Positions 40,090 to 49,874 of a stretch of 64,000 nt of DNA are shown here, in pieces. The translations under genes were made by a program, and so were the position numbers. Numbering within the stretch: the first letter of the stretch is position 1; every line of letters begins with the position of its first letter. Under the pieces are notes generated by a model. The model saw only the letters and a list, made by a program, of their open reading frames with translations, did not search any database and was not told where the DNA came from. This DNA is from Nitrososphaerota archaeon (GTDB taxonomy: Archaea > Thermoproteota > Nitrososphaeria > PSMU01): NCBI GenBank assembly GCA_040290255.1, contig PSMU01000001.1:328699-392698 (forward strand). The letters run 5' to 3'.

Positions 40090-40254
40090 CTACTTCGCCA
40101 CCACGACCTTGGCGATGGGCGGCCTCACCTTCCTCAGCACGCGGTACCCGCAGATGCACCTTATATCGGGCAGCTCGGCCAGGTCCTCGGCCCTGTTCAG
40201 GGCCCCGCACCTGACGCACTGGTACACCAGGCCCTTTATCTTCTCCGAGCTCAC
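40090..40254 (-). CDS. rpoP: DNA-directed RNA polymerase subunit P (Rpo12/RpoP)
   Basis: 54-aa product VSSEKIKGLVYQCVRCGALNRAEDLAELPDIRCICGYRVLRKVRPPIAKVVVAK: Y.C.RCG...RC..CGyr.L.K.R zinc ribbon; GTG start; TATA-like ttttaag upstream; absent from ORF track. Confidence 0.65.
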   Translation of the reverse strand: MSSEKIKGLVYQCVRCGALNRAEDLAELPDIRCICGYRVLRKVRPPIAKVVVAK

Positions 40255-40276
40255 GGGCTCGCCGGGGCTTTCCCGC

Positions 40277-41401
40277 TTAAAACGTTTTCCTCTTGAGGGC
40301 CCAGCCCCTCACCTCCCGGGCCACGCGCCTCACGTCCGCGGCGCCCATCCGCGGGTGCAGCGGCAAGGAAAGCACGCAGCGGGCCGCCCTCTCCGCGTTG
40401 GGCAAGCTAACGGCGCCGTAGCGCTCGCGGTAGAAGGGGAGCCTGTGCAGCGGCGTGGGATAGTAGACCCTGGCCTCTATGCCCCTGCCCTCCAGGTGCA
40501 GCAGCAGCTCATCCCTCCCTTCCTCCACGAAGATCGTGAAGGCCGTCCAGGAGTGCTCGCAGTACTCCTTGACGCGAGGCAGCCTTATGTACGGCACCCC
40601 CTCCAGCTCCTCCATGTAGAGCTGGGCCAACCCCCTCCTCCTCCTGAGCAGGGCCGCTGCCCTCCTCAGCTGCGCAAGCCCCAGGGCCGCCAGCGGCTCG
40701 GGCAGGCGCAGGTTCAGGCCCAGCGCCTCAGTCTCATAATGCCTCCAGGCGCCGTGGTTCCTGATGAGCCTGAGCCTCCTGGCCAGCTCCGAGGCCTGCG
40801 CTATAACTGCCCCTCCCTCGGCGGTGGTGATGAGCTTAGTGGGGTAAAAGCTGAGGCAGCCCAGGTCGCCCAGCGTGCCCGCGCATCTTCCCCTGTACTT
40901 CGCCAAGAGCGCCTGGGCGGCATCCTCGACGATCCAGAGCCCCCTGGCCTGCTTCAGCTTCAGCAGCGCATCCATATCGCAGACATGCCCATAGAGGTGC
41001 ACGGGCAACAGGCCCTTCACGCCCTCCAGCTGCCGCTCATCCAGGGAAGCCGCGTCCAGGCAGTAGGTCTCCAGCTCTATATCCGCGAAGACGGGCACGC
41101 CTCCCAGGGCCACCACGACGTTGGCCGTGGCGGGGAACGTCAGCGCGGGCACGAGCACGCGATCTCCTGGCCTGAGCCCCAGGGCCAGCAGCGCGGCATA
41201 AAGGGCTGAGGTGCCCGAATTGAAGGCCACGACCTCCTGCGCGCCCAGCAGCTGCGCCAGCGCGCGCTCGAAGCGGCCCACATAGGGCCCCCCTTGGGGC
41301 GAGGCGCTGGTCAGCAGCCCGCTCCGCAACGGTGCCGCGATGGCCCTCCTCTCGGCCCTGCCCAAGTAAGGCGCGGCGATCCTTATCCTCCTAGCCGCCA
41401 A
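40277..41401 (-). CDS. DegT/DnrJ/EryC1/StrS-family PLP-dependent (sugar) aminotransferase
   Basis: ...FNSGTSALYAAL...GDRVLVPALTF..., VEDAAQAL, SFYPTKLITTAEGG motifs. Confidence 0.8.
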   Translation of the reverse strand: MAARRIRIAAPYLGRAERRAIAAPLRSGLLTSASPQGGPYVGRFERALAQLLGAQEVVAFNSGTSALYAALLALGLRPGDRVLVPALTFPATANVVVALGGVPVFADIELETYCLDAASLDERQLEGVKGLLPVHLYGHVCDMDALLKLKQARGLWIVEDAAQALLAKYRGRCAGTLGDLGCLSFYPTKLITTAEGGAVIAQASELARRLRLIRNHGAWRHYETEALGLNLRLPEPLAALGLAQLRRAAALLRRRRGLAQLYMEELEGVPYIRLPRVKEYCEHSWTAFTIFVEEGRDELLLHLEGRGIEARVYYPTPLHRLPFYRERYGAVSLPNAERAARCVLSLPLHPRMGAADVRRVAREVRGWALKRKTF

Positions 41402-43482: not shown

Positions 43483-43625
43483 TCCCTGTTAAAAGCTGCT
43501 GCGGTGGCCGGCATGTGCCGGAGCGATCGTCCAAAAAAAAGGGAATATAGGGCACAAAATTGACCAAGAGGGGTTCTAAGAGCCGGGAAGTGCTGTCCCC
43601 TTAACTTGGAATCCTTTGCGTTAAG

Positions 43626-43637
43626 CCTAATATCATA
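43626..43637. promoter_or_regulatory. TATA-like element (cctaatatcata) about 28 nt upstream of the TTG start of the secreted-protein operon
   Basis: A/T-rich box at canonical distance for a leaderless transcript; an A8 tract and the palindrome CCGGCATGTGCCGG lie further upstream (43513-43546). Confidence 0.4.
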
Positions 43638-43658
43638 TGCTCCCGGGGGCCGTTAGGC

Positions 43659-44105
43659 TTGGAGCGTAGGCTAAGGACCAAACTGGTGGCCGCAGTTCTT
43701 CCTCTGCTAATCCTCCTAGGGGCAAGCGCCGCGTATGCCGTGACCATATCTCTCAGCAGCTCTAACGTAATGCCGATAGGGGGCACGGGACTCGTTACCG
43801 TGAATTGCCCAGCACAACCCTGCGCGGTGAGCAAAGTAACTTGGACGCTGGACACCTCACCTCCCTTCTACGTAGCCAGCGCAACCGTGTCCTGGACGCC
43901 CAGCCAAGATGGAGACTACCAGGTCTGCGTAAACCTCTATGGTAGCGATGGCAACCCGCTCAATAATGGAAGCGGCTGCATCACCAAACGCTTACCTGGA
44001 GGCACGGCTACAAGTACCACCGTGCCCTTCTCTGGGACGGGCTCGTCGAGGCCAAACCCAAGGGATATCTATAAGGTGGAAGTGATAATAGTCCAGACTC
44101 CTTGA
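43659..44105 (+). CDS. small secreted beta-rich protein, paralog A (Sec signal peptide, AYA cleavage site)
   Basis: TTG start; signal peptide LVAAVLPLLILLGASAAYA; mature N-terminus ISLSSSNVMPIGGTGLVTV paralogous to next two genes; Ser/Thr-rich; lower GC. Confidence 0.55.
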   Translation: MERRLRTKLVAAVLPLLILLGASAAYAVTISLSSSNVMPIGGTGLVTVNCPAQPCAVSKVTWTLDTSPPFYVASATVSWTPSQDGDYQVCVNLYGSDGNPLNNGSGCITKRLPGGTATSTTVPFSGTGSSRPNPRDIYKVEVIIVQTP

Positions 44106-44482
44106 GAAGACTTTTTTTGCTGCTGCTTCTCTCAATTATCTTAGCCCCGGCCTACGCGCTCTTAATAAGCCCCGTAAATGTCCAGCCCGCCGAAGGCATA
44201 AGGGTGGACCTCACGCGCCCCCTCAACAGCTGCTTTGAAGTAAAGGGGCTCGCCTTTTCCTTCAGCGCCACGTCCATAACCTCCGTCACGATAACGGTTT
44301 TTAACACATGCAACTCTCGAGAAACGGCGGATGTCTTGATTACCTGGTACCTAAGGGATGGGAGCTCTTTACAGACTCATATGACCATTCAGGTGCCCGG
44401 GCTGGGAACCAAGGCTGGCTCCGCCGCTTTATCCAACCCCATTCCCTTCGCCTCCCTGATTAAGGTGGTCGTGAATGTCTAG
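44102..44482 (+). CDS. small secreted beta-rich protein, paralog B
   Basis: TTG start overlapping previous stop; signal peptide ...ILAPAYA; mature SPVNVQPAEG... Confidence 0.55.
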   Translation: MRRLFLLLLLSIILAPAYALLISPVNVQPAEGIRVDLTRPLNSCFEVKGLAFSFSATSITSVTITVFNTCNSRETADVLITWYLRDGSSLQTHMTIQVPGLGTKAGSAALSNPIPFASLIKVVVNV

Positions 44483-44918
44483 AACTAGGACTTCGGCCGC
44501 GCTGTTCTTCGCGGGCCTGCTGCTCTTATTGATGGCCACCCCCTATGAGGCCTTCTCATCCCTGCTTGCCATCTCCACCATTAGGCCGGTGGGGGGCTCC
44601 GGCCTTGTACCCGTGCCCAAGGACGGCGTGCTGATGATCCGCATAAGCCTAAGCATGGGGGGAAACCTGGCCGATGATCGCATAAATCGGTTAGATATAG
44701 CGCTGCGGGCCTCGGACCCCAGCTACTCCTGCCCCGGCGGCTCGCGGTGTTATACGCTCGCCTATACGCTATATCTGGATAACTCCCTTTCGAGCTCCCG
44801 CAGCCGCGCCGTTTCGGTAACCACTACGGCAACTACAATCACCTTCAGCTTTTCTCCGCTTAATCAGGCCGGCGCGCAAAACCTCTCCATAATAATTAAC
44901 GTGGTGAGAAGTTCATGA
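44475..44918 (+). CDS. small secreted beta-rich protein, paralog C
   Basis: ATG overlapping previous stop; signal peptide AALFFAGLLLLLMATPYEA; mature ISTIRPVGGSGLVPV matches paralog A. Confidence 0.55.
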   Translation: MSRTRTSAALFFAGLLLLLMATPYEAFSSLLAISTIRPVGGSGLVPVPKDGVLMIRISLSMGGNLADDRINRLDIALRASDPSYSCPGGSRCYTLAYTLYLDNSLSSSRSRAVSVTTTATTITFSFSPLNQAGAQNLSIIINVVRSS

Positions 44919-45355
44919 TGAAGCGCGAGGCCTTCCTCCTCGGCATGGGCCTTCTCCTAACGGCCTATGGCGGCTATGGGCTGGCGCAGCGCCTCACGCT
45001 CTACTATGTAGCCTCTGGCTCCATGGAGCCCTACTTGCCCACAGGGAGCTTAATATTGGTTGAGCGCGGCGCCGTGCCCGCGGCCGGCGACATAGCGCTA
45101 GTGAACTATTACGGTGAGCCGCTCGTGCATAGGGTCGTGCGGGTAGACCCGAGCTCGGGCATAATATGGCTTACCGCCGACGCGCAGCCGGGCTTCGTTC
45201 AGCAAGCAAAGCTGAGGGATTTAATCGGCGTCGTCGTCCTGGCATTGCCCTACTTTGGCTATATGGCCATGCTTGCAAGGGCTTACCCCTGGCTTACTAC
45301 AGCTATGCTGGGAGCGCTTATATCGCTAATCCTATTGAGGTGGATTAAGGGGTGA
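44915..45355 (+). CDS. signal peptidase I, archaeal/ER (Sec11/SipW) type
   Basis: N-terminal TM, SGSMEP box B with nucleophilic Ser, GDIALVNYYGEPLVHRVVRV box D His, C-terminal second TM as in SipW; ATGA overlap with upstream gene. Confidence 0.75.
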   Translation: MMKREAFLLGMGLLLTAYGGYGLAQRLTLYYVASGSMEPYLPTGSLILVERGAVPAAGDIALVNYYGEPLVHRVVRVDPSSGIIWLTADAQPGFVQQAKLRDLIGVVVLALPYFGYMAMLARAYPWLTTAMLGALISLILLRWIKG

Positions 45356-46632
45356 GGAGGCCCCTCAAGGCGCTCCTTACGCTCGCGCTGCTCTTTCCCC
45401 TACTTGCTCATCCCTCCCATGCCATCGCTTCGGTGACCGTCGACGTCCCCTTTCAAATATCAGCCACGCTTGATGGAAGGCCGCTGCTGATAAGCGGCGC
45501 GGCGCAGGTCTCCGGCACGCTGTGCCTGCCCCTGCTCGTGTACGCTTCTCCTCTAGAGCGCTATGCCTTCGAGGGCTGGTATGTTAATGCCACGCGCATC
45601 TCAACGGGCTCCTGCCTAAGCGTAAGCGAGGGCAGCTACCTGGCGCACTACAAGCCGCAGTTCCTGGTGGGCCTGGCCTCGGATCCGCCGGGCCTCCTCT
45701 CGACGAGCCTTTGGGCAAATGCGAGCGAGCCCACGCCCATTTCCCTTCCGACGCAGATAGAGCGAGAAGGGGTGAGGGCCAGGCTTATCGCCGCTTACTT
45801 CAACGGATATCCCCTTCCAATAATAAACGGGAGCATCGTCATAGGCGTAAGGGCCCCAGCCCTAATAACCCTGGCCTATGAGAAGTTCGTGAGGATAACC
45901 ATCATGGGCCCTAACTTCACGCGAGAGCTCTGGGCCAGGGCCGGAGCGCCGATAGCCCTACCGCTTCCTGATTATGTGCCCGTAGCCGAGGGCGCAAGAT
46001 TACGGCTGGTCGCAGCGTATGCTGGGCAGACAGAGATAGGCCGAACCTACATACCCGGCGAGCCCGTGCTCATAGCCGCGGCCTATGTAAGGCAATATTA
46101 TGTGAGGGTAAGCTCGCCCCAGGGGGCTTTAGTTGAGGGCTGGTATGATGAAGGCACTCAGCTCAGTATATCCGCGCCTGAGATGATAAGCATGGGCCCC
46201 GGCAGGAGGCTGGCCTTCCTGGGCTGGAGCGGCATAAACTACACGGGCAGCAGCCTCGGCTTAACTGTACGGGCTCCGATCAACGCCACGGCCCTGTACG
46301 AGCTCCAGGTGGAGGTTCAGCTAATGACTCCCCTGGGAACTTCGAGCTACTGGATAGGAGCGGGGAAGACGATGGCCCTCAGCCTGCCCACCTCCCTTCC
46401 CGCCTCCCTCGGCTTCGTCAGAAGCCTGGTGGGCGTAACGATGAATGGAAAGAGCCTGCCAGTAGATAAGGGCATAATCATGGTTACCCCCCTCGAGCCC
46501 TCGATGGTGGTGGCGCAGTATTCGCTCTCACTGGACCCTCAGGGCCTCCTAATACTTGCAGGGATTGGGCTGCTCATTTCGGCGCTTTACCTCGGCCTGA
46601 GCAGGGCCAAGAAGAGGGAGAAGCCCGATTAG
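45352..46632 (+). CDS. large secreted protein with C-terminal TM anchor and basic tail (surface-anchored)
   Basis: GTG start overlapping SPase stop; signal peptide ...LAHPSHA; repeated F/L.GW motifs; many N-x-S/T sequons; C-terminal LLILAGIGLLISALYLGL + SRAKKREKPD. Confidence 0.6.
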   Translation: MRRPLKALLTLALLFPLLAHPSHAIASVTVDVPFQISATLDGRPLLISGAAQVSGTLCLPLLVYASPLERYAFEGWYVNATRISTGSCLSVSEGSYLAHYKPQFLVGLASDPPGLLSTSLWANASEPTPISLPTQIEREGVRARLIAAYFNGYPLPIINGSIVIGVRAPALITLAYEKFVRITIMGPNFTRELWARAGAPIALPLPDYVPVAEGARLRLVAAYAGQTEIGRTYIPGEPVLIAAAYVRQYYVRVSSPQGALVEGWYDEGTQLSISAPEMISMGPGRRLAFLGWSGINYTGSSLGLTVRAPINATALYELQVEVQLMTPLGTSSYWIGAGKTMALSLPTSLPASLGFVRSLVGVTMNGKSLPVDKGIIMVTPLEPSMVVAQYSLSLDPQGLLILAGIGLLISALYLGLSRAKKREKPD

Positions 46633-46732: not shown

Positions 46733-47281
46733 CTACCTGGAGGCCAGCTGGCCGGAGAGCAGCAGCCCCCAGGCGAGCACCGGATAGACGATCATCCTCT
46801 CGATCCCTCCCCTGCCCAGGCCCAGGTCCACGTTGGCCAGGAAGAGCAGCAGCGAGAGCAGGCTGAGGAGGCCCAGCAGCAGATGTAGCGGCCTTAGGGC
46901 CGGGGGCGAGATGCGATACGAGGAGAGCGCGGCCAGCCCCGAGAAGAGGAAGGCGATGAGCGAGAAGAGGCCATGTAAGAGGCCGAAGCGCTCGTTGAAG
47001 AGGCCCACGCCCAGGGCGCCTATGCCCGCGAGCGCGAGCAGCAGCCTAAAGATCCTGCCGTAGCCTTCGCCCAGCCAGTAGCTGCCCGCCAGCACGAGCA
47101 GGCCCAGCAGCGAGACCGAGCCGTTGAAGGCCCAGGCGGAGGGGCCCACGCCCAGGTCGCTGATGAAGTTCTGGGAGACGCTGTAGTCCGGATAGAGGGC
47201 CTCCGCGGCCAGCAGGCCCAGCAGCAGGAACTGGATCACGCCCACCGAGAAGGCAAGGGAGGCAAGGTGCACCCTGTTCAT
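46733..47281 (-). CDS. integral membrane protein (DUF998-like, tentative)
   Basis: 183 aa from internal Met MNRVHL; 5-6 TM helices; ISDLG motif reminiscent of DUF998; longer ORF-track version would overlap the polB promoter. Confidence 0.45.
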   Translation of the reverse strand: MNRVHLASLAFSVGVIQFLLLGLLAAEALYPDYSVSQNFISDLGVGPSAWAFNGSVSLLGLLVLAGSYWLGEGYGRIFRLLLALAGIGALGVGLFNERFGLLHGLFSLIAFLFSGLAALSSYRISPPALRPLHLLLGLLSLLSLLLFLANVDLGLGRGGIERMIVYPVLAWGLLLSGQLASR

Positions 47282-47339
47282 GCCAAGGCCCTGGGGGGTT
47301 AGGTTTATATGCGCTCGCAGGGCCCGAGCGGCACACGAT

Positions 47340-49874
47340 ATGTTCGAGGGCGGGGGAACGGTCGCGGCGAAGCTCCGGCAGCTCACCGCCCATACGAGCA
47401 ACCTCCCGCCCTCCATGCTCGTCTCCGCCACCTATAACGGCGAGCAGGCCGTGGCCGTGCTGAAGTTCTACGAGCCCTCGGGCCAGCGCATCTATCTCTG
47501 GTACGACAGGACGGGGCACAGGCCCTATTGCTATACGCTGCTGGGCCTTGAGGAAACCAGGGCCCGGCTCAGGGGCTTCATGGACCTGAGGTTCCAGGAG
47601 GAGGAGAAGTATGACCTGCTGGAGGATAGGCCCAGGAGGGTCACGAAGATCGTCGCGCCCGACCCGCTCACCATAGGCGGGGGCAAGAAGTCCGTCAGGA
47701 ACGATATAGAGGCCTGGGAGGCCGACATAAAGTACTATGAAAACTACCTGTATGATAATAACCTGCACGTGGGCGCCTTCTACCGCATCGTCGACGACGT
47801 GATCCAGCCCGTGCCCTATGAGCTGCCGCAGGAGGTCGGCAGGGTGCTCGAGGAGCTGCTGCAGGAGAACGAGAGGGAGCTGAGGGACTACATCAAGGAG
47901 TGGGCGGTGCTGCTCAACCAGCCCCTGCTGAACTTCAAGAGGCTGGCCCTCGATATAGAGGTGGATGCCGGCGGCCTGAACCGCGTGCCCGACACGGCCG
48001 AGGCCAAGGAGAGGGTGCTGGCGATAGGGCTGGTGGGCAGCGATGGCAGAAAGGAGGTGCTGCTGCTCAGGAGGGAGAGGCCGCTGGGCGAGAAGGGCGG
48101 GCTGGAGGCCAGCGTCATCCCCTTCGAGGACGAGCGCGAGATGCTGCTCTCGGCCTTCGAGAGGATGATGGAGTACCCCTTCGTGGTCACGTTCAACGGC
48201 GATGACTTCGACCTCAACTACCTGTACCACAGGGCGCTCAGGCTGGGCATTCACAGGGAGGCGATCCCCATCACGATGGGCCGCGACTATGCCGCGCTGG
48301 CGCACGGCGTGCACATAGACCTCTACCGCACCTTCGTCAACAGGTCCATCCAGAACTACGCCTTCGGCAGGAGGTACACGGAGCACACGCTGGAGGGCGT
48401 GGCGGAGGGGCTGCTGGGCGAGGGGAAGCTGGAGTATGAGGGGCGCCTGGAGGATCTCCCGCTGCTCTCGCTCGCCCAGTACTGCTACAGGGATGCCCAG
48501 CTCACGTACCAGCTGACCTCCTTCGACGATGAGGTGCTGCTGAAGCTGCTGACGGTCATCGCGAGGATAGCGAAGCTGCCCATCGATGACGTGGCCCGGC
48601 TGGGCGTCTCGCAGTGGATAAGGAGCATGATGTACATGGCGCACAGGCGCCAGGGCTACCTGATACCCAGGAAGGACGATTTGGCCAGGAAGGGGGGCGC
48701 CTCGTCGGAGGCCGTCATCAGGGGCAAGAAGTACAAGGGCGCGCTGGTGGTGGAGCCCAAGTCCGGCGTGCACTTCAACGTAAAGGTGCTGGACTTCGCC
48801 TCGCTGTACCCCAGCATCATCAAGGTCTTCAACCTCTCATATGAAACGGTGCGCTGTCCCCATCCCGAGTGCAGGGCCAACGTCATCCACGAGACCGACC
48901 ACTGGGTCTGCACCAAAAGGAGGGGCATCACCTCGCTGCTGATCGGCAGCCTGAGGGACCTCAGGGTCAAGTACTACAAGCACCTCGCCAAGAGCCCGGG
49001 GCTCAGCAGGGTGGAGAGGAGCTTTTACTCGGTCATCTCCCAGGGCCTCAAGGTGATCCTGAACGCCGCCTACGGCGTCTTCGGCTTCGAGGAGTTCCCC
49101 CTGTACTGCCTGCCCGTGGCCGATGCCACGGCCGCGATAGGGCGCTACATCATCAGCAGGACGATCGAGCAGTGCGGGACGCTGGGCGTCGAGGTGGTCT
49201 ACGGCGACACCGACAGCCTCTTCATCAAGAGCCCCGCCGAGGAGCCCGTGGAGAGGATCAGGAGCTGGGCCGAGGCGGAGCTGAGGGTCGAGCTGGAGCT
49301 GGACAAGGTCTACAAGTACGCCGCCTTCAGCGGCAGGAAGAAGAACTACTTCGGCGTGCTGCCCGATGGCTCCGTGGACATAAAGGGCTTGACGGGCAAG
49401 AAGTCCCATACGCCCCTCTTCATAAAGAAGCTCTTCCAGCAGGCCCTGCAGTACTTGGGCGAGGTGAACACGCCCGAGGACTTCATGAAGGCCCGGGAGA
49501 GGACCAAGGAGCTGCTGCGCGAGGGCTACCTGCAGCTGAAGGAGAGGAAGGTGCCGCTGGAGGAGCTGGCCTTCAGGGTGATGCTGGGCAAGAACCCCGA
49601 GGAGTATGCGGAGACGACGCCCCAGCACATAAAGGCGGCCCGGCTGCTGCAGGAGAGGGGCAAGGAGGTGAAGGCCGGCGACATCATCTACTTCGTGAAG
49701 GTGATGGGCCCGCTGGGCGTAAAGCCCCTGGAGCTCACCAGGAAGGAGGAGGTGGACGTGGACAAGTACGTGGAGTTCCTCAAGGGCACCTTCGAGCAGG
49801 TGCTCGATGCCCTGGGCTATGACTTCGAGGAGCTGATGGGCGCCAGGAGGCTGGAGGAGTTCTTCGTCAGCTAG
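47340..49874 (+). CDS. polB: family B DNA polymerase
   Basis: Exonuclease motifs, DFASLYPSII (motif A), KVILNAAYG (motif B), YGDTDS (motif C); start at MFEGGG with TATA-like gtttatat about 30 nt upstream; no intein-sized insertion. Confidence 0.9.
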   Translation: MFEGGGTVAAKLRQLTAHTSNLPPSMLVSATYNGEQAVAVLKFYEPSGQRIYLWYDRTGHRPYCYTLLGLEETRARLRGFMDLRFQEEEKYDLLEDRPRRVTKIVAPDPLTIGGGKKSVRNDIEAWEADIKYYENYLYDNNLHVGAFYRIVDDVIQPVPYELPQEVGRVLEELLQENERELRDYIKEWAVLLNQPLLNFKRLALDIEVDAGGLNRVPDTAEAKERVLAIGLVGSDGRKEVLLLRRERPLGEKGGLEASVIPFEDEREMLLSAFERMMEYPFVVTFNGDDFDLNYLYHRALRLGIHREAIPITMGRDYAALAHGVHIDLYRTFVNRSIQNYAFGRRYTEHTLEGVAEGLLGEGKLEYEGRLEDLPLLSLAQYCYRDAQLTYQLTSFDDEVLLKLLTVIARIAKLPIDDVARLGVSQWIRSMMYMAHRRQGYLIPRKDDLARKGGASSEAVIRGKKYKGALVVEPKSGVHFNVKVLDFASLYPSIIKVFNLSYETVRCPHPECRANVIHETDHWVCTKRRGITSLLIGSLRDLRVKYYKHLAKSPGLSRVERSFYSVISQGLKVILNAAYGVFGFEEFPLYCLPVADATAAIGRYIISRTIEQCGTLGVEVVYGDTDSLFIKSPAEEPVERIRSWAEAELRVELELDKVYKYAAFSGRKKNYFGVLPDGSVDIKGLTGKKSHTPLFIKKLFQQALQYLGEVNTPEDFMKARERTKELLREGYLQLKERKVPLEELAFRVMLGKNPEEYAETTPQHIKAARLLQERGKEVKAGDIIYFVKVMGPLGVKPLELTRKEEVDVDKYVEFLKGTFEQVLDALGYDFEELMGARRLEEFFVS

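Follow-up and report, generated by a model that had tools for sequence, protein, structure and literature searches.

A conserved five-gene archaeal cassette encoding small Ig-like secreted proteins, candidate minimal pilins of the strand-donation kind

Background

To our knowledge, all archaeal fibres built by strand donation in the absence of a chaperone (bundling pili, threads, cannulae, Tafi and AbpX) first came to light between 2022 and 2026, and each of them came from a cultured organism by way of cryo-EM. The signature of Tafi (or taf-like) and AbpX loci is a dedicated signal peptidase I, with or without a DUF5305 protein, lying beside two to three small paralogous pilins, a tip protein and an anchor (PMC11821415, PMC12337348, bioRxiv 10.64898/2026.01.04.697558). 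In the Tafi system, the pilins are TafA/TafE or DUF1102 proteins, and the other parts are the signal peptidase TafD, the DUF5305 protein TafG, the tip TafC and the anchor TafF (PMC11821415, PMC12337348). AbpX of Pyrodictium abyssi is a solved donor-strand fibre (bioRxiv 10.64898/2026.01.04.697558; PDB 9SJ2, 9RHP), and the TasA fibre is held together by donation of an N-terminal strand without chaperone or usher (PMC9245690).

Here, we analyzed a window of 64,000 nucleotides (the whole stretch of DNA under study) from an uncultured Thermoproteota archaeon, and concentrated on three small genes that an initial annotation had described as tandem pilin-like paralogs. These genes form the front of what appears to be an operon of five genes that is complete in itself and encodes a thin surface fibre. 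By analogy with the systems above, such a fibre is the most likely product of the cassette, and the best reading, to which we give a little better than an even chance, is that the small proteins are a minimal family of pilins joined by donor-strand complementation.

Results and discussion

Organization of the cassette

Open reading frame calling placed gene A at 43659..44105 (148 amino acids), gene B at 44102..44482 (126 amino acids) and gene C at 44475..44918 (147 amino acids), all on the forward strand, with TTG, TTG and ATG as their respective start codons. They open a cassette that spans positions 43659-46632 and continues, on the same strand, with a signal peptidase gene (gene 4, 44915..45355, 146 amino acids) and a gene called as encoding a 426-amino-acid protein (gene 5, 45352..46632). 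All five genes are co-oriented, and their stop and start codons overlap throughout, as TTGA between A and B, ATGTCTAG between B and C, ATGA between C and gene 4, and GTGA between gene 4 and gene 5. The three reading frames, their starts and their overlaps are as first annotated, and the chain extends by its GTGA into the fifth gene. The stoichiometric co-expression that had been deduced from the overlaps does not follow, since overlapping stop and start codons do not imply equal output. Known fibres of the strand-donation kind contain one subunit in large excess.

The TTG start of A is well supported, because position 43659 is its earliest possible start downstream of an in-frame stop, and because a 73% identical ortholog of A, at locus L007, has an ATG exactly there. 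An A/T-rich TATA-like box read from the sequence, TAATATCATAT (43620..43638, forward strand), lies about 25-30 nt 5' of this TTG in a block that is kept in L007; it is a putative archaeal promoter element, and its spacing to the TTG means that the mRNA would be leaderless or have a short leader. An Rfam search of the window returned no match.

Protein A and its family

Protein A belongs to a family of about 70-81 clusters of proteins, 120-160 amino acids long and without annotation, whose members have in common a Sec signal peptide, an A-(Y/F)-(A/S) cleavage site, an amphipathic N-terminal segment of 9-14 residues, a GGTG motif and an Ig-like beta-sandwich core. In A itself, the signal peptide covers residues 1-27 (43659-43739, forward strand) and ends with AAYA|V; it is followed, on the same strand, by the amphipathic segment VTISLSSSNVMPI (residues 28-40, 43740-43778), by GGTG (residues 41-44, 43779-43790) and by the core (residues 45-148).

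The cleavage site is highly regular: position -1 is Ala or Ser in all 70 family members compared, position -3 is Ala, Val, Ile or Gly in 67 of them, and position -2 is aromatic or aliphatic. Downstream of it, the family column statistics give hydrophobic fractions of 0.90, 0.96 and 1.00 at positions +1, +3 and +5, with polar residues in between (Ser, Thr, Gln or Asn at +2 and +4), and the segment keeps this alternation and its fixed length even in members whose sequence there differs. GGTG itself is present in 40 of the 70 members, and most of the others have near-variants. On these sequence features, cleavage by a signal peptidase I is predicted to expose an N-terminal amphipathic strand.

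Signal peptides had been annotated on all three proteins, and A, B and C indeed each begin with a positively charged n-region and a hydrophobic core; the n-regions are short and the h-regions strongly hydrophobic, which is Sec-like. Tat export was rejected because the RR pair present in A and B is not conserved in the family, and cleavage after GGTG was rejected because the c-region would then reach about 17 residues, too long for a signal peptidase I. At the other end of the protein, the proposed C-terminal beta-strand tail was borne out by A, in which the strand Y.VEV.IV is conserved and is confidently modelled by AF2.

Proteins B and C, two divergent paralogs

The signal peptide of B comprises residues 1-19 (MRRLFLLLLLSIILAPAYA|L, forward strand). 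Cleavage had been proposed after AYA, AYA and YEA in A, B and C, respectively; the canonical site stands family-wide, and the YEA of C would place a Tyr at -3. Orthologs of C show (A/V)-(F/L)-S|S/T, so that this protein is probably cut two residues beyond YEA, after residue 28, at AFS|S.

The same annotation held that the mature N-terminus is conserved in all three proteins. This is retained for A and C, which have a GGxG motif in common (PIGGTGLVTV in A, PVGGSGLVPV in C) that is kept in orthologs of both genes, including the C orthologs of loci L002, L005, L008, L012 and L014. In C the motif is GGSG (residues 40-43, 44592-44603, forward strand), and the N-terminal strand is also kept. GGxG is absent from B, whose N-terminus aligns with those of A and C no better than chance, and B orthologs bear a different motif, N-V-x-P...R-P-D/E.

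Whether the three genes are paralogs depends on the method of comparison. Pairwise BLASTP among A, B and C found no similarity. Alignment of family profiles over the mature regions with hhalign paired A with B at 95.5% probability (E 1.5e-8) and A with C at 90.8% (E 1.2e-6, the GGxG region included), and the A-family HMM matched B and C orthologs with E-values from 8.5e-12 to 2.6e-4. On the proteins of the window, the same HMM gave C only 0.068 and B 0.43, yet ranked them second and third among 448 open reading frames. The annotated paralogy is therefore kept as a distant one, which on sequence grounds is visible by profile comparison only.

Within the cassette, conservation is highest for A, at 42-47% identity between orthologs versus 18-31% for B and C, and B is the fastest evolving. 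Five of the eight SNPs relative to L006 fall in B. The wide gap in conservation between A and the other two suggests one major subunit, A, and two minor ones. We propose B, a divergent paralog, as a candidate adapter, tip or terminator, and C, likewise divergent and with the N-terminal strand and GGSG retained, as another candidate minor subunit. The AF2 model of C, built with two close homologs only, has a pLDDT of 41.6. A and C carry one N-x-S/T sequon each.

The signal peptidase and the large protein

The product of gene 4 has the boxes SGSMEP, GD, HRV and ADA, conserved in all orthologs, and membrane segments at its N- and C-terminus. It matches Pfam Peptidase_S24 above the cut-off (1.4e-6) and SEC11C in the PDB at E 5.8e-5, with the Ser and His boxes (SGSMEP and HRV) aligned; its match to TIGR02228 (sigpep_I_arch, 2.5e-8) falls below the curated cut-off, which makes it a divergent member of that family. 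By these features, gene 4 encodes a dedicated Ser-His signal peptidase I of the Sec11/SipW type.

The product of gene 5 is beta-rich; it has a signal peptide at its N-terminus, F-x-G-W motifs that recur, and at its C-terminus a transmembrane helix (hydropathy segment 391-419) followed by a basic tail, RAKKREKPD. Searches of Pfam, NCBIfam and the PDB gave no match to it, and a BLAST comparison against itself detected no internal repeat. Its orthologs, 426-475 amino acids long, occupy the same position in every cassette. By analogy with TafF, we propose that it is the membrane anchor or base of the fibre, or else a tip adhesin.

Conservation of the cassette in other archaea

The cassette is conserved in hot-spring archaea. 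The order A, B, C, signal peptidase, large protein is shared by six or more archaeal lineages that have diverged from one another, among them MAGs of Caldarchaeales and Desulfurococcales: it is found at L002/L009 and L008 (Ca. Caldarchaeum and Thermoproteota MAGs), L005, L012 (a Desulfurococcales MAG) and L014/L015, with protein identities of only 18-47%. The signal peptidase ortholog is in the same position in L002, L005, L008, L012 and L014, and a signal peptidase I also stands beside family members in L010 and L011. More generally, distant members of the family, 21-28% identical to A, adjoin a paralog and a signal peptidase I as well. At L010, the signal peptidase I that neighbors a distant family member is fused to DUF5305, and at L011 a 313-amino-acid protein combines an N-terminal family domain with an extra domain, a tip-like layout. 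A locus search with a six-member alignment gave matches in two GTDB genomes only.

A proposed route to a surface fibre

The adjoining signal peptidase I, the conservation of the cassette, the DUF5305 fusion and the Ig-like sandwich with its unstructured N-terminal extension (see below) together strengthen the pilin reading. In the assembly that we envisage, A, B and C would be exported by the Sec pathway and cut after A-(Y/F)-(A/S) by the operon's own signal peptidase I, which would free an amphipathic N-terminal strand of 9-14 residues, with the glycines of GGTG or GGSG as a hinge between it and a small Ig-like beta-sandwich. The free strand would then enter the sandwich of the next subunit, and the polymer would form without a chaperone, as TasA, AbpX, thread and Tafi fibres do. 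The major subunit would come from A, which is the first gene and the most conserved one, C and B would serve as adapter, initiator or terminator, and the C-terminally anchored 426-amino-acid protein would tie the fibre to the membrane or form its tip. We infer three parts of this scheme: the insertion of the strand in trans, the major and minor roles of the subunits, and the anchoring role of the large protein.

A more specific proposition, to which we lean somewhat less than halfway, is that the GGTG proteins are unrecognised minimal archaeal strand-donation pilins of a single Ig-like domain, independent of or very remote from the TasA superfamily, and built by a portable cassette of five genes, one for the major subunit, two for minor subunits that evolve fast, and one each for a membrane anchor and a private signal peptidase of the Sec11 type. 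In that case, one more lineage would be added to the surface fibres of Thermoproteota. If the cassette does build a strand-donation fibre, such fibres would reach Caldarchaeales, Desulfurococcales and unnamed hot-spring lineages. The family would have been missed by homology searches, and could be found by the combination of A-Y-A, an amphipathic strand of 9-14 residues, GGTG, an Ig-like core and an adjoining signal peptidase I. Its subunit would be the smallest of its kind and, being derived from a thermophile, would suit in vitro assembly and work on biomaterials. The cassette further favors the view that fibre loci with unrelated subunit families can be recognised by their private signal peptidase I.

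Structure of A and the placement of its N-terminal strand

The AF2 model of A is a confident seven-strand sandwich, with pLDDT values of 84-94 from residue 61 and lower values over residues 45-60. In this single-chain model, residues 22-44 have a pLDDT below 50, and the N-terminal segment is left unplaced or disordered, which is compatible with donor-strand complementation and is not proof of it. The 50 Foldseek matches listed for the A model against the PDB are generic Ig-like sandwiches (4gio, 3o0l), and TasA, AbpA, AbpX, thread and TafE are not among them.

Several observations bear on whether the strand acts in trans. The seven-strand sandwich may already be complete, so that the acceptor groove is putative, and the mature subunits, of about 105-121 amino acids, are smaller than any characterised archaeal pilin of the strand-donation kind. 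The GGTG could also be a tight turn that gives a hairpin in cis, as in the N-terminus of the MS2 coat, which the A-family profile weakly resembles: against PDB sequences, this profile reached E 1.9e-4 for an engineered tandem dimer of the coat only, and 0.04-0.07 for single coats. We judge this similarity to be due to chance or convergence, but keep it in view as a structural warning that the hairpin could form in cis.

These points are the core of the strongest alternative, in which A, B and C are secreted or surface Ig-like proteins, such as adhesins or binding modules, that do not polymerise, that need a dedicated signal peptidase, and whose N-terminal segment is simply the first strand, packed in cis via the GGTG turn. 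The generic nature of the sandwich agrees with it, as do the weak fn3, Filamin and PKD similarities that are all that Pfam reports for the A family, the span of the weak MS2 similarity across the GGTG hairpin turn, the occurrence of the family's core motif, Y.V.V.D..N, in giant Ig-repeat proteins, and the failure of profile searches against the PDB and of hhalign against AbpX to reveal homology to solved fibre subunits. However, AF2 was free to pack the segment in cis and did not, and the length and hydrophobic alternation of the segment are conserved despite drift in its sequence. Moreover, the recurring set of two to three paralogs, a signal peptidase I (fused to DUF5305 or not) and a larger protein that is either anchored or of two domains is the make-up of known fibre loci, unlike ordinary secreted-protein loci (PMC11821415). 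We therefore hold the alternative to be unlikely, at roughly one chance in four, and prefer donor-strand complementation in trans.

Comparison with described fibre systems

The pilin-like, strand-donating nature first ascribed to the three proteins is partly supported, by the locus context and by the model of A, and a link in sequence or fold to solved strand-donation pilins was not found in the searches reported here. In layout, the cassette resembles Tafi: in both, two to three small secreted paralogs with a beta-sandwich fold are compactly clustered with a dedicated S24/S26 signal peptidase and with a larger protein that has a membrane anchor at its C-terminus. The DUF5305 domain fused to the signal peptidase of L010, an Lrp-type regulator upstream of one relative of the cassette, like TafB, and the Sec-type signal peptides on the subunits of non-halophilic Tafi versions add to the likeness. 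In contrast, the cassette subunits have no DUF1102 or TafE match in Pfam or PDB profile searches, and are shorter when mature than the 150-200 amino acids of Tafi pilins. Gene 4 is minimal, lacking the second extracellular domain and the four transmembrane helices of TafD, and the window cassette has neither a DUF5305 gene nor a Tat motif, the Tat signal being restricted to haloarchaeal Tafi.

The thread subunit Saci_0406 of Sulfolobus acidocaldarius is processed by signal peptidase I into an N-terminal tail and a beta-sandwich head, and its co-transcribed paralog Saci_0405 has been proposed as a cap or minor subunit (PMC9715654). Unlike the cassette, the thread locus has no dedicated signal peptidase; thread shows no sequence match to the A family, and has isopeptide bonds and heavy glycosylation, which are not predictable for the cassette subunits from sequence. 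The Mth60 fimbriae of Methanothermobacter (mth58-61) are alike by description, with a small Sec-dependent fimbrin, a four-gene cluster, self-assembly in vitro and a modelled strand-donation fibre (PMC10370314, PMC11821415), but a signal peptidase is not reported in the mth58-61 operon. The bacterial chaperone-usher pilins FimA and PapA also have an Ig-like subunit, an N-terminal extension with alternating hydrophobics, and several paralogous subunits per operon, whereas the cassette has no periplasmic chaperone, usher or outer membrane, and the relation is one of analogy only.

The likeness to AbpX concerns the N-terminus. TYA|QWSETLSLSATI-STGS-LDV in AbpX and AYA|VTISLSSSNVMPI-GGTG-LVTV in A present, in the same order, an aromatic residue at -2, a donor strand of 12-13 residues, a hinge of small residues (STGS versus GGTG) and the first core strand, and AbpX-like loci also include a signal peptidase I, minor subunits and tip proteins. 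AbpX shows no significant homology to the A family, however, and differs from it in being acidic (about 15% Asp/Glu, pI about 4), whereas mature A has 6 Asp/Glu in 121 residues (5%). The aromatic residue at +2 and the acidic one at +4, which serve calcium-mediated complementation in AbpX, are both missing from the A family, and the AbpX-associated signal peptidase I has ten transmembrane helices. A metagenome scan with AbpX, aimed at an AbpX family profile, found nothing. As for the tapA-sipW-tasA operon of Bacillus subtilis, it too combines genes for secreted fibre subunits, for a SipW/Sec11-type signal peptidase of their own and for a protein with an accessory or anchoring role; the cassette differs from it in having three paralogous subunits, a small Ig-like sandwich versus the jelly roll of about 230 amino acids in TasA, and a gene 5 unrelated in sequence to TapA.

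These likenesses raise a second alternative, namely that A, B and C do belong to the TasA superfamily, as strongly reduced proteins of the AbpX/TasA-like type, and the operon a diverged tapA-sipW-tasA or abpX-type locus. AbpX is the best single-sequence PDB match of A (E 0.1), with the same N-terminal layout and a collinear but insignificant alignment (...P(G)...V.V.F/W.L...V.V.LY(N/D)..GN). A SipW/Sec11-type peptidase lies next door, and TasA homologs recognisable by Pfam have been reported in Caldarchaeales (PMC9245690). Against this, A, B and C match neither PF12389 nor any other Pfam or NCBIfam model, profiles A1 and A3 searched against the PDB miss all of AbpX, AbpA, TasA, CanA, thread and TafE, and hhalign of the family against AbpX gives a probability of 3%. 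With the Foldseek result and the missing AbpX hallmarks, we regard this membership as improbable.

Finally, a type IV pilin or archaellin-like nature of A, B and C, in which a prepilin peptidase would process the hydrophobic N-terminus as a class III signal peptide and the filament would retain it as its core, is effectively refuted by the absence of a class III signal: the N-terminal helix plus beta domain of the A model and a Pyrobaculum type IV pilin at Foldseek rank 10 (TM-score 0.32, a low value) agree with it, but no [KR]-G/A|hydrophobic motif precedes the hydrophobic stretch, a canonical A-x-A follows it, no PilB/PilC-type ATPase or platform gene lies nearby, and the adjoining peptidase is of type I.

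A five-gene cassette of recurrent order

The small secreted proteins A, B and C are encoded on the plus strand at 43659-44105 (A; 148 aa, start TTG), 44102-44482 (B; 126 aa, TTG) and 44475-44918 (C; 147 aa, ATG), and direct reading of the sequence bore out the ORFs, start codons and overlaps (TTGA, ATGTCTAG and ATGA) of the initial annotation. The chain of overlaps runs beyond these three ORFs, as gene 4 (44915-45355, plus strand; 146 aa) overlaps gene 5 (45352-46632, plus strand; 426 aa) by GTGA; the unit therefore consists of five co-oriented, tightly packed genes. TTG 43659 is the earliest possible start in the frame of A, and its use is supported by a 73%-identical ortholog that has ATG at exactly this position and conserves the A/T-rich, TATA-like block lying about 25-30 nt upstream. 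The sequence context suggests a leaderless or short-leader transcript.

The sequence of gene 4 is that of a Sec11/SipW-type (Ser-His) signal peptidase I: it scores above the Pfam S24 cut-off, matches TIGR02228 at 2.5e-8 (below that model's curated cut-off) and aligns with human SEC11C at 5.8e-5, SGSMEP and HRV included. The large, membrane-anchored product of gene 5 matched nothing in Pfam, PDB or self-BLAST. F-x-(G/E/R/K)-W motifs recur in it, two in the window copy and five in the L002 and L008 orthologs, and resemble InlB B-repeat-like surface domains.

The cassette's neighbours are, on one side, a membrane-protein gene transcribed away from it along with tyrosyl-tRNA synthetase and, on the other, a DUF998 gene transcribed towards it along with a family B DNA polymerase. 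A 575-aa ORF inside the polymerase gene is one of many long ORFs antisense to real genes (for example, 40109-41209, plus strand, and 47046-48773, minus strand), which we rejected as genes, being artefacts of the 62-70% G+C content. G+C is 54-61% across the cassette (43500-46500) versus 62-71% in the flanks, a drop that may be due to the Ser/Thr/Asn-rich composition or to the cassette having been acquired by transfer.

The gene order A-B-C-peptidase-large anchored protein is widespread among related loci. Relatives were found in a Candidatus Caldarchaeum MAG (L008), hot-spring Thermoproteota and Nitrososphaerota MAGs (L001-L004, L009), a metagenome contig (L005), L014/L015, and a Desulfurococcales MAG (L012), where an Lrp/AsnC regulator (L012 6418-6846) lies directly upstream. 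The flanking genes differ from lineage to lineage, and the cassette thus behaves as a portable module. Two far more distant relatives of A (21-28% identity) were placed on contigs L010 and L011. The former carries two paralogs, then a signal peptidase I fused to DUF5305 (L010 1286-2650); the latter carries two paralogs and a signal peptidase I, then a 313-aa protein (L011 1854-2795) whose N-terminal domain matches the A family (5e-7) and whose extra C-terminal domain is unrelated, apparently the layout of a tip subunit. Both the peptidase-DUF5305 fusion and the upstream Lrp/AsnC regulator have been reported from Tafi and AbpX-type fibre loci.

Cleavage site and mature N terminus of the A family

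We built a profile from A and its first six homologs and ran it on 1.84 billion representative proteins; it matched 81 clusters, about 70 of them proteins of 120-160 aa with the same build. The members found are nameless or called 'hypothetical protein' only, and no Pfam or NCBIfam model covers the family. Column counts over 70 aligned members, which describe sequence features only, gave A or S at -1 in all 70, A, V, I or G at -3 in 67, and Y, F, W or L at -2 in 65; judged in this way, the family members are canonical Sec/signal peptidase I substrates. The segment after the cleavage site is 9-14 residues long in these 70 proteins, with hydrophobic fractions of 0.90, 0.96 and 1.00 at +1, +3 and +5 and polar residues between. 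Behind it stand a hydrophobic residue, then GGTG, which 40 of the 70 carry exactly and most others as a near-variant, and then x-V-x-V-x-x-P. We read the mature N terminus as an amphipathic beta-strand that a glycine hinge joins to the body.

Strand and GG(S/T)G are kept in C and its orthologs; B and its orthologs lack both and have another N-terminal motif instead. The proposed three-way alignment of mature N termini therefore holds for A and C, with their common strand and GGxG, and fails for B. Cleavage of C after YEA, also proposed, would put Tyr at -3, and the orthologs indicate a cut after (A/V)(F/L)S. A Cys pair, CPxxxC (A residues 50-55, CPAQPC; 43806-43823), lies directly after the first core strand and corresponds to the family column C..P...C; the family's archaeal subgroup conserves it, with Cys at the first position in 26 of 70 members, and it likely forms an extracellular disulfide-closed loop.

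Distant paralogy and unequal divergence

That A, B and C are paralogs, as first described, is not apparent from direct BLASTP among them, which found no similarity, and emerges from profiles. With mature regions only, hhalign aligned the A family with the B family at 95.5% probability (E 1.5e-8) and with the C family at 90.8% (E 1.2e-6). An HMM of the mature A family matched B orthologs at 8.5e-12, 1.7e-6 and 2.6e-4 and C orthologs at 3e-6 and 2.5e-4; on the window's own proteins it gave 0.068 for C and 0.43 for B, second and third best among all 448 window ORFs. From these profiles we conclude that A, B and C are paralogs of long standing, now strongly diverged.

Identity between orthologous cassettes is 42-47% for A, 23-31% for C and 18-25% for B, a pattern that would be expected for one constrained major and two freer minor subunits. 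Stoichiometric co-expression, claimed earlier from the overlapping codons, is not supported, since archaeal operons often contain such overlaps and the pattern of conservation favours unequal roles. A 99.7%-identical contig (L006) differs from the window by eight SNPs over 3.3 kb, five of which fall in gene B (44102-44482), 11.5% of the span (binomial P ~8e-4). All five are protein-changing (R73P, E74Q, D77N, K104M and stop to Gln), the last adding two residues while being synonymous in overlapping gene C. Among the orthologs B also diverges fastest, and these data suggest that an exposed subunit is under diversifying or relaxed selection. As called, the L014 ortholog of B (L014 7504-7878) has no signal peptide (MFISSLNASK...), probably through a wrong start call or else because the copy is truncated.

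Predicted fold and comparison with strand-donation fibres

A single-chain AlphaFold2 model of A, built with six sequences (mean pLDDT 73), renders the signal peptide as a helix and residues 45-148 as seven strands; block means of pLDDT are 55 and 70 as far as residue 60, then 84-94. It leaves residues 22-44, a stretch that includes the mature N-terminal segment and GGTG, unplaced (pLDDT <50). The predicted structure is an Ig-like core with a free N-terminal segment.

Loci of this type are known from published work. The haloarchaeal Tafi and the taf-like clusters of Thermococcales and Archaeoglobales hold two to three small paralogous pilins, together with a dedicated signal peptidase (TafD), the DUF5305 protein TafG, and a tip as well as an anchor bearing a transmembrane helix at its C terminus (PMC11821415, PMC12337348). 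AbpX-like loci encode a signal peptidase I, a DUF5305 accessory protein, minor subunits and tips (bioRxiv 10.64898/2026.01.04.697558), and the Bacillus fibre operon is tapA-sipW-tasA (PMC9245690). Tafi, AbpX and TasA fibres all rely on chaperone-free N-terminal donor-strand complementation (PMC11821415, PMC12337348, bioRxiv 10.64898/2026.01.04.697558, PMC9245690). The N terminus of AbpX, a solved fibre subunit, reads TYA/QWSETLSLSATI-STGS-LDV..., and that of A, AYA/VTISLSSSNVMPI-GGTG-LVTV..., with the parts in the same order; the self-complemented AbpX construct of the authors has its core start at this very point (bioRxiv 10.64898/2026.01.04.697558).

In Pfam, PF12389 and DUF1102 gave no match, and a PDB search with both A profiles found no fibre subunit. 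The best PDB match of the single sequence A is AbpX, at a non-significant E of 0.1; hhalign of the A family against AbpX gives 3% probability, and the family shows none of the AbpX hallmarks, namely an acidic composition, an aromatic residue at +2 and an acidic one at +4. With no significant sequence, profile or hallmark match, membership in the Tafi, AbpX or TasA families is not established. Papers cataloguing archaeal strand-donation fibres name AbpA, AbpX, CanA, threads, Tafi/DUF1102 and Mth60, none of which fits the A family.

We favour, with moderate confidence, a new and very small pilin family working like the TasA, AbpX and Tafi subunits. Its established basis is the cassette and its conservation, the identity of the peptidase, the cleavage-site and strand statistics, the distant paralogy deduced from profiles, and the modelled Ig-like core with its free N-terminal segment. 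On this basis, the N-terminal strand of a subunit would insert in trans, major and minor roles would be divided among A, B and C, and the large protein would act as anchor. The A family is a useful and testable case, though not one to startle specialists, who have explicitly predicted more such fibres.

In the main rival reading, to which we give clearly less credence, the proteins are Ig-like surface proteins that do not polymerise, and their N-terminal strand folds back in cis by way of a GGTG turn. Such a geometry exists, GGTG being a beta-hairpin turn in the MS2 coat, and the A-family profile (alignment A3, about residues 38-98 of A) weakly matches the N-terminal hairpin of MS2/fr phage coats (GGTGDVTVAP...V.EW...Y.V.V). 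The match scores E 0.04-0.07 for single coats and reaches 1.9e-4 only for an engineered tandem dimer, and the resemblance is probably due to chance. It is improbable that the A family is a reduced but true member of the TasA superfamily, a question of ancestry and not of mechanism, which overlaps with the strand-donating pilin family favoured here rather than competing with it. Type IV pilins are excluded.

Two A-family matches of 248-256 aa (P0074 and P0088) contain tandem family domains, the second without the N-terminal strand and GG motif; together with the L011 protein, these natural two-domain versions could be adapter or tip subunits.
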